The notes: generated by a model not told the origin, from the letters alone. Shown: positions 3,124 through 3,604, counted from the stretch's first letter. The stretch: 43,400 nt of DNA from an uncultured Clostridia bacterium (GCA_947626235.1 CANQRI010000113.1:1-43400); one strand, 5' to 3'. Program-made: numbers and translations.

Positions 3124-3604
3124 AAATTTATTATTTAAAATTTAATTATTTAATTTTTTATAAATTAATTATTTTTATTATTTTATTTTTTTTTATTAAT
3201 TATTTTTATTATTTTATTTTTTTTATTAATTACTTTATTTTTTTATTTTTTTTATTAATTATTTTATTTTTTATAAATTATTATTTTTAATAAATTTTTA
3301 TTTCATATTTTTTGCAAAATAATCATTTCAAAAGTATTTATTTTTATATTTTTTACGTGTTTTATGCTTTGCCATATTGACTATATTTTTTAACATTTTT
3401 TATTTTTTAAACTTGTTTTTGTGTTTATGTATACCATTTTTGTTTTTTTAATAATTTTTCAATTTTTTAGTATTCCGAAGATATTCATGTCTCATTTTTT
3501 GCTATTTTATAAAAATTTAGCATAAAAATCATAGTCTATATCAATTTTTTAATATTTTTAATGTTTATAGTATGTTTGACTTTATGACATTTTTTAGGAG
3601 GTGA
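3124..3604. repeat. Non-coding AT-rich block: short-period T-tract / TTATTAAT repeats (3124-3300) plus one copy of the TTGAC..GTATAC-43nt-ATTCC module (3377-3476)
   Basis: There is no ORF. Near-identical tandem strings occur (ttattaattatttttattattttatttttttt twice). TTGACT is at 3377, GTGTTTATGTATAC at 3421-3434 and ATTCC at 3472, with the same order and 43-nt spacing as in the 19.9-23.8 kb array. Confidence 0.8.

Follow-up and report, generated by a model that had tools for sequence, protein, structure and literature searches.

Is the block of DNA between the genes for a 93-aa membrane protein and a VirB6-like membrane protein (positions 3124-3604) a control region, and how is it related to the repeats of a tandem array that lies between rsmI and yabB on the same piece of chromosome? 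The question arises for a stretch of 43,400 nucleotides from an uncultured Clostridia bacterium (GCA_947626235.1, CANQRI010000113.1:1-43400; the whole stretch is referred to here as the window). An earlier note on this DNA had proposed that the block, which we call the gap, has the same organisation as the modules of the array, that it probably acts as promoter or 5' leader of the VirB6-like gene, and that the array may consist of amplified copies of this control region. The features concerned are listed in Table 1.

Table 1. Features of the gap, the array and their flanks (positions counted from the first nucleotide of the window)
Feature	Position	Strand	Remarks
93-aa membrane protein gene	2842..3123	+	ORF; upstream flank of the gap; "PrgI-like" in the earlier note
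T-tract / AT microsatellite block	3124..3300	+	29-30-nt unit x4.5 at 3141-3274 (TRF); outside the homologous module
Lone diverged copy of A-type module	3335..3590	+	collinear alignment to the A profile; 49.8 bits; 58.9% fixed-register identity
Box 1 ATATTGACT (TTGAC core)	3374..3382	+	ATATTGAC begins at 3374; TTGAC at 3377; arrays read TTGTTATTTTGACAAT
Box 2 GTGTTTATGTATAC	3421..3434	+	contains TTATGTATAC at 3425
Box 3 ATTCC	3472..3476	+	exactly 43 nt past the G of GTATAC
Box 4-like TTTGACTTTATG	3575..3586	+	arrays carry TTGTCTTTTTGTGTATGT
Shine-Dalgarno AGGAGG of the VirB6-like gene	3596..3601	+	read from the sequence
VirB6-like membrane protein gene, 293 codons	3611..4492	+	frame open from 3605; probable start ATA 3611
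yabB/trmN6-like methyltransferase gene	19078..19827	-	array flank
Tandem array	19840..23780	+ (T-rich strand)	~1107-nt unit x3.5; 11% G+C; ~4 kb non-coding
Array A modules	A1 19880-20170, A2 20985-21275, A3 22092-22380, A4 23180-23470
Array B modules	B1 20580-20870, B2 21690-21980, B3 22775-23065
rsmI	23780..24613	-	array flank

The window and its T4SS-like gene cluster

With recR, ybaB, dnaX, the SRP RNA, abrB, spmAB, the yabB/trmN6-like methyltransferase gene and rsmI, the window is an origin-near segment of the chromosome of a spore-forming member of the Clostridia; in its close relatives, gidA-gidB-soj-spo0J are found within about 10 kb. The G+C content is about 25% overall and 11% in the long intergenic regions. 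The closest named record is the MAG SRR15730535_bin.30 of an "uncultured Clostridiaceae bacterium" with about 85% nucleotide identity, and the organism is known from metagenome assemblies alone. At the left end (window 1-73), a full-length minus-strand tRNA scores 66.5 bits with Rfam; ARAGORN is silent about it, probably due to the contact of the gene with the window edge.

The gap is part of a T4SS-like gene cluster (739-4492). The earlier note had regarded this cluster as an island, and this view had to be given up: the cluster is conserved and chromosomal, homologues of the VirB6-like protein number more than 4300 (the best 120 of these are 62-100% identical), and chromosomal synteny was found in the seven lineages whose loci were compared. 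The syntenic flanks contain genes for a CI-like HTH+S24 repressor, a DUF1858 protein and a T4CP-like ATPase (L030, L032 and L025 compared), and the outgroup clusters additionally have a gene for a VirB4-like ATPase as well as a ParA-like gene (436-461 aa) nearby. Neither the 93-aa nor the 293-aa protein has a match in Pfam, NCBIfam or PHROG. The 93-aa gene is 60% identical to a 96-aa gene that is located downstream of the VirB6-like gene in the outgroup L030 and that is its orthologue.

In the reading frame of the VirB6-like gene, ATG, GTG and TTG are all absent before 4031. Translation probably starts at the ATA at 3611, 9 nt past AGGAGG, as no other codon is a plausible start, and an identical ATA is present in the sister species L025. 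The GTG that gene callers choose at this start belongs to the Shine-Dalgarno sequence GGAGGTGAT; a 1-nt insertion puts it out of frame in the window (GTGATATAAAATAG vs GTGATAAAAATAG; L025 region 5990-6020). In the database entries of 302 and 306 aa for the VirB6-like protein, a TGA seems to have been read as an amino-acid codon, which points to a miscall under code 4.

Motifs in the gap and their spacing

Every motif that had been reported for the gap was found at its claimed position. The window copy carries boxes 1 to 4 in the order and orientation of the A modules, with 43 nt from box 2 to box 3. Box 1 is kept as CATTGACTAT in the gap of L025. The 14-mer GTGTTTATGTATAC begins at 3421 in the gap and recurs, as had been noticed, in A2 (21089) and A4 (23283), and the TTATGTATAC that it contains is common to six of the seven window modules and the sister array.

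The distance of 43 nt between GTATAC and ATTCC had been claimed for the gap and all seven modules. This is correct for the sites at 3429, 19989, 20704, 21097, 21814, 22204 and 23291; at 22899 the spacing is kept but the first motif reads GTACAC. Moreover, the register is not common by chance: the pattern GTATAC-N37-ATTCC with at most one mismatch has nine matches in the window vs 0.52+-0.77 in shuffles, and eight of the nine are the gap and the seven modules. GTATAC occurs at six further sites in the window, always without ATTCC at +43. The same register is present in the array copies of L034 (1272/1315 and 2576/2619), in L102A and in the gap of L025. The A-rich similarity downstream of the boxes that the earlier note had cited does align, but only with an offset of 16 nt.

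Homology between the gap and the array

At 11% G+C, the outcome of a similarity search depends on how composition is treated. Default nhmmer, run with profiles of the A, B and AB modules, gave E values from 0.26 (AB profile) to 5.5 (A profile) for the gap. It also failed to connect the A with the B modules (E ~4), and thus has no power at this composition. Conversely, with the option --nonull2 the gap beats all shuffles (0 of 1000 reach it); this test was dropped since natural T-rich stretches without relation to the array, antisense coding DNA among them, reach equal or higher scores. The composition-aware test used a profile of A1-A4 scored as log-odds against a T-rich background. With strict gap penalties, the gap reaches 24.5 bits vs 15.2+-1.9 in shuffles (1 of 1000 reaches it), and the next natural control is at 19.6 bits. 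With chaining gap penalties, it reaches 49.8 bits vs 20.1+-3.7 in 1000 dinucleotide shuffles (maximum 39.0; z ~8), and none of 237 natural T-rich controls comes to this score (maximum 26.6 bits). The gap is thus more similar to the array than shuffled sequences of the same composition, even though this is visible only under composition-aware tests. The composition-aware score and the fixed register both support the proposed link between gap and array, which extends to the sister species, and we regard the similarity as real and collinear from about 3335 to 3590.

The claim of a common organisation holds for this core (3335-3590) but not for the T-tract block that precedes it. This block is absent from the orthologous gap in L025, L029 and L040, and its periods of 16 and 29 nt differ from the ~12 nt of the T blocks in the array. 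The motif TTATTAAT occurs 14 more times elsewhere on this strand of the window, and the T-tract/TTATTAAT block is low-complexity sequence. Similar T-tract microsatellites fill unrelated intergenic regions in the outgroups as well as the rsmI flank of L037. By all these comparisons, 3124-3300 is a species-specific AT microsatellite unrelated to the module.

The orthologous gap in the sister species (L025, L029 and L040; VirB6-like protein 84-88% identical) has 308 nt and is collinear with window 3290-3610 at about 70% identity. In L025, it reads TTATGTAAAT for TTATGTATAC (GTAAAT for GTATAC) and GTTCC for ATTCC, and the 43-nt register is kept. A Smith-Waterman (SW) profile test against the modules gave z=8 for the window gap and z=0.5 for the L025 gap, which hinted at a recent gene conversion in the window genome. 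The two gaps were also compared to the A modules in a fixed register, i. e. ungapped over 87 nt and anchored on GTATAC or, for L025, on the orthologous position. Here, the window gap is on average 58.9% identical to A1-A4 and the L025 gap 58.6%, against 40.4+-5.3% and a maximum of 55.7% in the controls (n=6304 natural T-rich 87-mers). When an A-module reference was scanned over the whole L025 and L029 loci, the top position was the orthologous anchor. The fixed-register comparison together with the near-symmetric numbers of derived matches (39 vs 30) rules out the recent gene conversion. Since both gaps are almost equally identical to the A modules, the gap copy predates the split of the species; the paralogy of gap and array is thus shown to be older than the separation from the sister species.

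That all this reflects nothing but chance similarity between low-complexity T-rich sequences is hardly credible. Chance would account for the default nhmmer E values of 0.26 to 5.5 and for the uncorrected scores that unrelated T-rich DNA attains, and even pure T-tract blocks reach a fixed-register identity of 0.57-0.60. It would not account for a composition-aware z of ~8 that no shuffle or natural control comes close to, for an exact 14-mer that holds four G/C bases, for the confirmed 43-nt register, or for the equal score of a sister-species gap whose register was set independently.

The array, its relatives and its distribution

In each unit of the array, an A module is followed by about 440 nt of T-tract sequence and then by a B module, and a linker completes the unit. 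The first 1.5 kb are supported by the independent assembly L001 (99.6% identity). A perfect 9+1+9 palindrome, GCTATTTTG-A-CAAAATAGC, is centred on the TTGACA box in B2 (21726-21744) and B3 (22812-22830), and box 1 of A1 is TTGTCAA, the reverse complement of TTGACAA; for these two reasons, box 1 may be better seen as a symmetric site, TTGWCAA, than as a -35 element. Beside the array region, a 1438-aa ORF (25606-29922) encodes a BcrAD_BadFG + DUF2229 fusion that resembles 2-hydroxyacyl-CoA dehydratase activators, and its synteny is kept in all relatives compared.

In the sister species, the array comprises at least 2.3 units (L034 10835-13779); these measure about 1300 nt, and a single A-like module is present per unit. 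The close strains L102 (2203-3401) and L103 (2301-3490) have a single 1.2-kb unit with a B-like and an A-like module; while the rsmI gene of L102/L103 is 97.6% identical at the nucleotide level, their unit is only about 70% identical to the window units. Array copy number is thus shown to vary from 1 to 3.5 units among close strains. Several contigs end in this region: the rsmI flank of L037 (JGI 3300010163; 10880-11329) has about 18 copies of the 14-nt T-rich unit TTATTTATATTTTT and then the contig ends, and the MAG contigs L034, L035 and L101 likewise end inside the array region, so that assemblies break at the array.

The array spacer has about 70% identity vs 93-98% in the flanking genes and thus diverges far faster than these. 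Across the array lineages, TTGTTATTTTGACAAT, TTATGTATACTT, ATTCC at +43 and TTGTCTTTTTGTGTATGT are kept, with the sequence around them being only 50-70% identical. Between GTATAC and the +43 box, there is not a single indel in the 10 GTATAC-anchored array copies, despite the T runs in this interval; L102A reads ATCCC at +43. The survival of four boxes in poorly conserved surroundings argues for constraint on the array copies, in a comparison that covers three array lineages and two gap lineages only.

When GTDB genomes were scanned with the strict pattern (one genome for each of 185,579 species), only the array of the sister MAG (L006) was found, at the same rsmI flank. The scans of JGI metagenomes and IMG/VR yielded only matches read as chance: the single match that was opened (L042, the same contig as L081) is a phage terminase/portal contig, and the remaining single-copy matches were taken as chance. 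The repeat family is present at only two loci in the window and the compared loci of its relatives and is, within the reach of these scans, shown to be confined to a small lineage of uncultured Clostridiaceae.

Pneumococcal BOX, enterobacterial BIME/REP and ERIC elements are modular intergenic repeats that are dispersed in tens to hundreds of copies and have a strong potential to form stem-loops. Like these, the present repeats are non-coding and lineage-restricted, have conserved boxes in a fixed order, and are located between or within operons, where they may at times be co-transcribed. Unlike them, they occupy two loci, have no conserved fold, are extremely AT-rich, and show the strict 43-nt spacing of the boxes. 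An origin as a MITE or IS-derived element finds no support: there are no terminal inverted repeats but only short AT-rich inverted repeats inside the modules, the family has two loci in the window and the loci compared and a single related array in the GTDB scan, and Pfam searches with the long T-rich ORFs of array and gap had no matches and thus revealed no transposase remnant.

Gene order at the two repeat loci

The outgroups (VirB6-like protein 68-72% identical) have the order T4CP-pilin-VirB6-96aa-dnaD-dnaI, whereas the window lineage has pilin-93aa-[gap]-VirB6-recR. The 93-aa gene, which the outgroups have behind the VirB6-like gene, has moved to a place in front of it, and the lone module sits between the two. 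The distance from the pilin to the VirB6-like gene is 13-18 nt in the outgroups L032 and L041, and it is filled by a 193-nt T-tract microsatellite in L030; none of them has the module. At the other locus, the outgroup order is yabB-rsmI-abrB with a 44-nt gap and no array (L038 9214-10828) vs rsmI-[array]-yabB in the window lineage, and the array sits exactly between the swapped yabB and rsmI genes (window 19078-24613). Both repeat loci are thus shown to sit at lineage-specific changes in gene order relative to the outgroups, an association that concerns two loci only.

Does the module drive the VirB6-like gene?

The earlier note had regarded the module as a probable promoter or 5' leader of the VirB6-like gene and had suggested that the array may be amplified control regions, which would then contain promoters on the plus strand. 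We consider this unlikely. A promoter would fit TTGACT (3377-3382), 18 nt and TATTTT in the gap, the corresponding TTGTCA-17-TATAAT in A1 and TTGACA-17-TATGCT in A3, the orientation of the module, which is that of the T4SS genes and brings its end to 8 nt before the Shine-Dalgarno sequence, and the preservation of the TTGAC box in the sister-species gap. The -35-like hexamer is TTGACA or TTGTCA in all array modules and TTGACT in the gaps of the window and L025. Yet, a -10 element 16-18 nt past TTGAC exists only in the window gap, A1 and A3, and is absent in A2, A4, B1-3, L102A, R1, R2 and the L025 gap. Sigma-70-like sites are no more numerous than in shuffles (gap: 9 vs 9.3+-3.2; array: 29 vs 49.2+-6.6), and neither terminators, nor an Rfam match, nor a stable leader fold (gap z=+1.15 vs shuffles) were detected. 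The sister species has lost boxes 2 and 3 and yet retains the gene, the outgroups L032 and L041 have neither spacer nor module, implying transcription as an operon, and the array modules are not followed by any gene.

Sigma-70 promoters in low-G+C Firmicutes can carry upstream curved A/T tracts, such as the phased A-tracts of Clostridium perfringens. The gap is similar in having a T/A-tract block upstream of a TTGACA-like hexamer that is oriented towards a gene of the T4SS locus. It differs from such promoters by the non-conserved -10 region, the lack of enrichment of promoter-like matches, the absence of the T block in the sister species, and tract periods (12, 16 and 29 nt) that deviate from the helical repeat. 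The boxes were also compared by eye with consensus sites, and none of those for sigma E/F/G/H/K, dif/Xer, DnaA boxes, Spo0A and CodY or for Rex, TnrA, CtsR, PurR, the cop box and the nick region of MOBV oriT fits across the copies.

The idea that the array arose as amplified copies of the control region is not supported, and copying may have gone either way. Conservation of the boxes is higher in the arrays, which makes the gap copy look like the decaying one.

Could the modules be genes?

Each module might be a small gene in the manner of type I toxins (LDR), with the ATG in TTATGTATAC as the start of a hydrophobic peptide of 19-64 aa, MYT[FCI]-x11-[LFSEK]-IP; we regard this as improbable. 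Its appeal is that ATTCC would provide codons 16-17 (Ile-Pro), so that the fixed in-frame distance of 45 nt would be accounted for: all intact copies examined have both the ATG and Ile-Pro, exactly 15 codons apart. Even the deviating box of L102A is a silent change (ATT CCC to ATC CCG), and the peptide still ends in IPHTL there, with its stop at the same position. Of the 14 copies that have the ATG of box 2, 10 have an ORF of 19-64 aa starting there, a weak piece of evidence as any frame of T-rich DNA yields such ORFs. Indeed, the other two frames are equally or more open, and F/L/I/Y-rich "peptides" appear in any T-rich frame. There is no Shine-Dalgarno sequence within 20 nt upstream in any copy, the variable columns are distributed over the codon positions as 13/14/16 and thus show no third-position excess, the peptide length ranges from 19 to 64 aa, early stops occur in B1, L102B and the L025 gap copy, and signals for an antisense RNA or terminator-like sites were found on neither strand. 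Moreover, the spacing never shifts even by 3 nt, although a reading frame would permit this. The gap "peptide" was also compared with the signal peptide of the pilin, and a resemblance was rejected (54% nucleotide identity vs a baseline of 43%, not significant).

The comparison with known toxin loci concerns architecture. Type I toxin loci have short (<70 aa) hydrophobic ORFs that occur in tandem in one intergenic region, with strain-variable copy number (PMC2887945), as the tandem short hydrophobic ORFs of the array would. The array and the lone copy would resemble E. coli ldrABC and ldrD of the tandem LDR (ldr-rdl) type I toxin-antitoxin repeats (Kawano 2002, as cited in PMC2887945). Shared traits are tandem units of a few hundred nt in one intergenic region plus a lone copy elsewhere in the genome, copy numbers that differ in close strains, a similarity that extends past any ORF, and a short hydrophobic ORF per unit. 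Unlike in the LDR loci, no ribosome-binding site, coding-type substitutions, antisense RNA signals or terminators were found here, ORF length is not conserved, and the units are far larger (1.1 kb), including T-tract blocks of 400 nt. The resemblance is one of architecture only.

Equally doubtful is a more specific protein-binding scenario. The box 2-N37-box 3 unit (TTATGTATAC, 37 nt and ATTCC, about four helical turns) might be the binding site of a DNA-binding protein, the origin-proximal array with its T-tract blocks of ~12-nt period might serve as a nucleoprotein platform, e. g. centromere-like or as a regulator sink, and the lone copy might tie the T4SS-like cluster to the same factor. 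We would regard this full scenario as a long shot.

Finally, it is very improbable that the modules are small-RNA genes or structured cis-acting RNAs, with the array as a set of sibling sRNAs and the gap copy as a related leader. Tandem sibling sRNAs do occur in other bacteria, and A2-A4 of the window fold better than shuffles (z -2.2 to -2.9; A2 -3.1 in another run). But the fold signal is present on both strands and is absent in the gap copy (z=+1.15 to +1.3), R1 (-0.3), R2 (+1.4) and L102A (-0.2). Furthermore, the candidate hairpin shows no compensatory change: its 3' arm ATTCCCCA is fixed, yet in A1, A3, B1 and B3 its 5' arm has decayed. Rfam has no match at E<=1 (3050-3700 and 19800-23850) and none at the gathering threshold, and no terminators were seen.

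Discussion

The account that we favour, if by a modest margin over even chances, combines three elements: the gap would consist of a microsatellite and a lone relic paralogue of the A-type module, the array copies would be constrained as a DNA-level and probably protein-bound element, and the VirB6-like gene would be independent of the module. In this account, the gap (3124-3604) is a spacer within a conserved chromosomal T4SS-like cluster and is made up of two unrelated parts. The second part (~3335-3590) is the lone, diverged paralogue of the A-type array module, with TTGAC, TTATGTATAC, ATTCC 43 nt further on and TTTG(A/T)CTTT(A/T)TG. Judging from conservation and the fixed spacing, the module would act at the level of DNA as a two-part, spacing-locked site that is most likely bound by a protein, and it is in the array copies that it would be held under constraint.

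As to the copy in the gap, we suggest that it is a relic from the rearrangement of the 93-aa and VirB6-like genes, which may be decaying, and more quickly so in the sister species. Two observations speak against a relic: all 20 core-motif bases are retained in the window gap copy, a mild surprise if this copy were a neutral relic (rough P ~0.04 at 15% divergence), and both the orientation of the module and its end 8 nt before the Shine-Dalgarno sequence would suit a role as leader. According to the favoured account, the VirB6-like gene is most likely co-transcribed with the upstream genes and translated from AGGAGG-N9-ATA, and the module would not be needed for its expression.

The analysis also holds a lesson on methods: bias-corrected HMMER misses the homology between gap and array, and uncorrected scores overstate it. 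To detect it, the scoring had to take composition into account, and an orthologue was needed whose register had been fixed independently.

The element is limited to a few uncultured gut Clostridiaceae. If the boxes are truly protein-binding or expression signals, they would represent a new lineage-specific cis-element. In that case, the tandem amplification of the repeats, the variation of their copy number and their position at breakpoints would also provide a compact example of the origin and spread of non-coding repeats in genomes of very high AT content.
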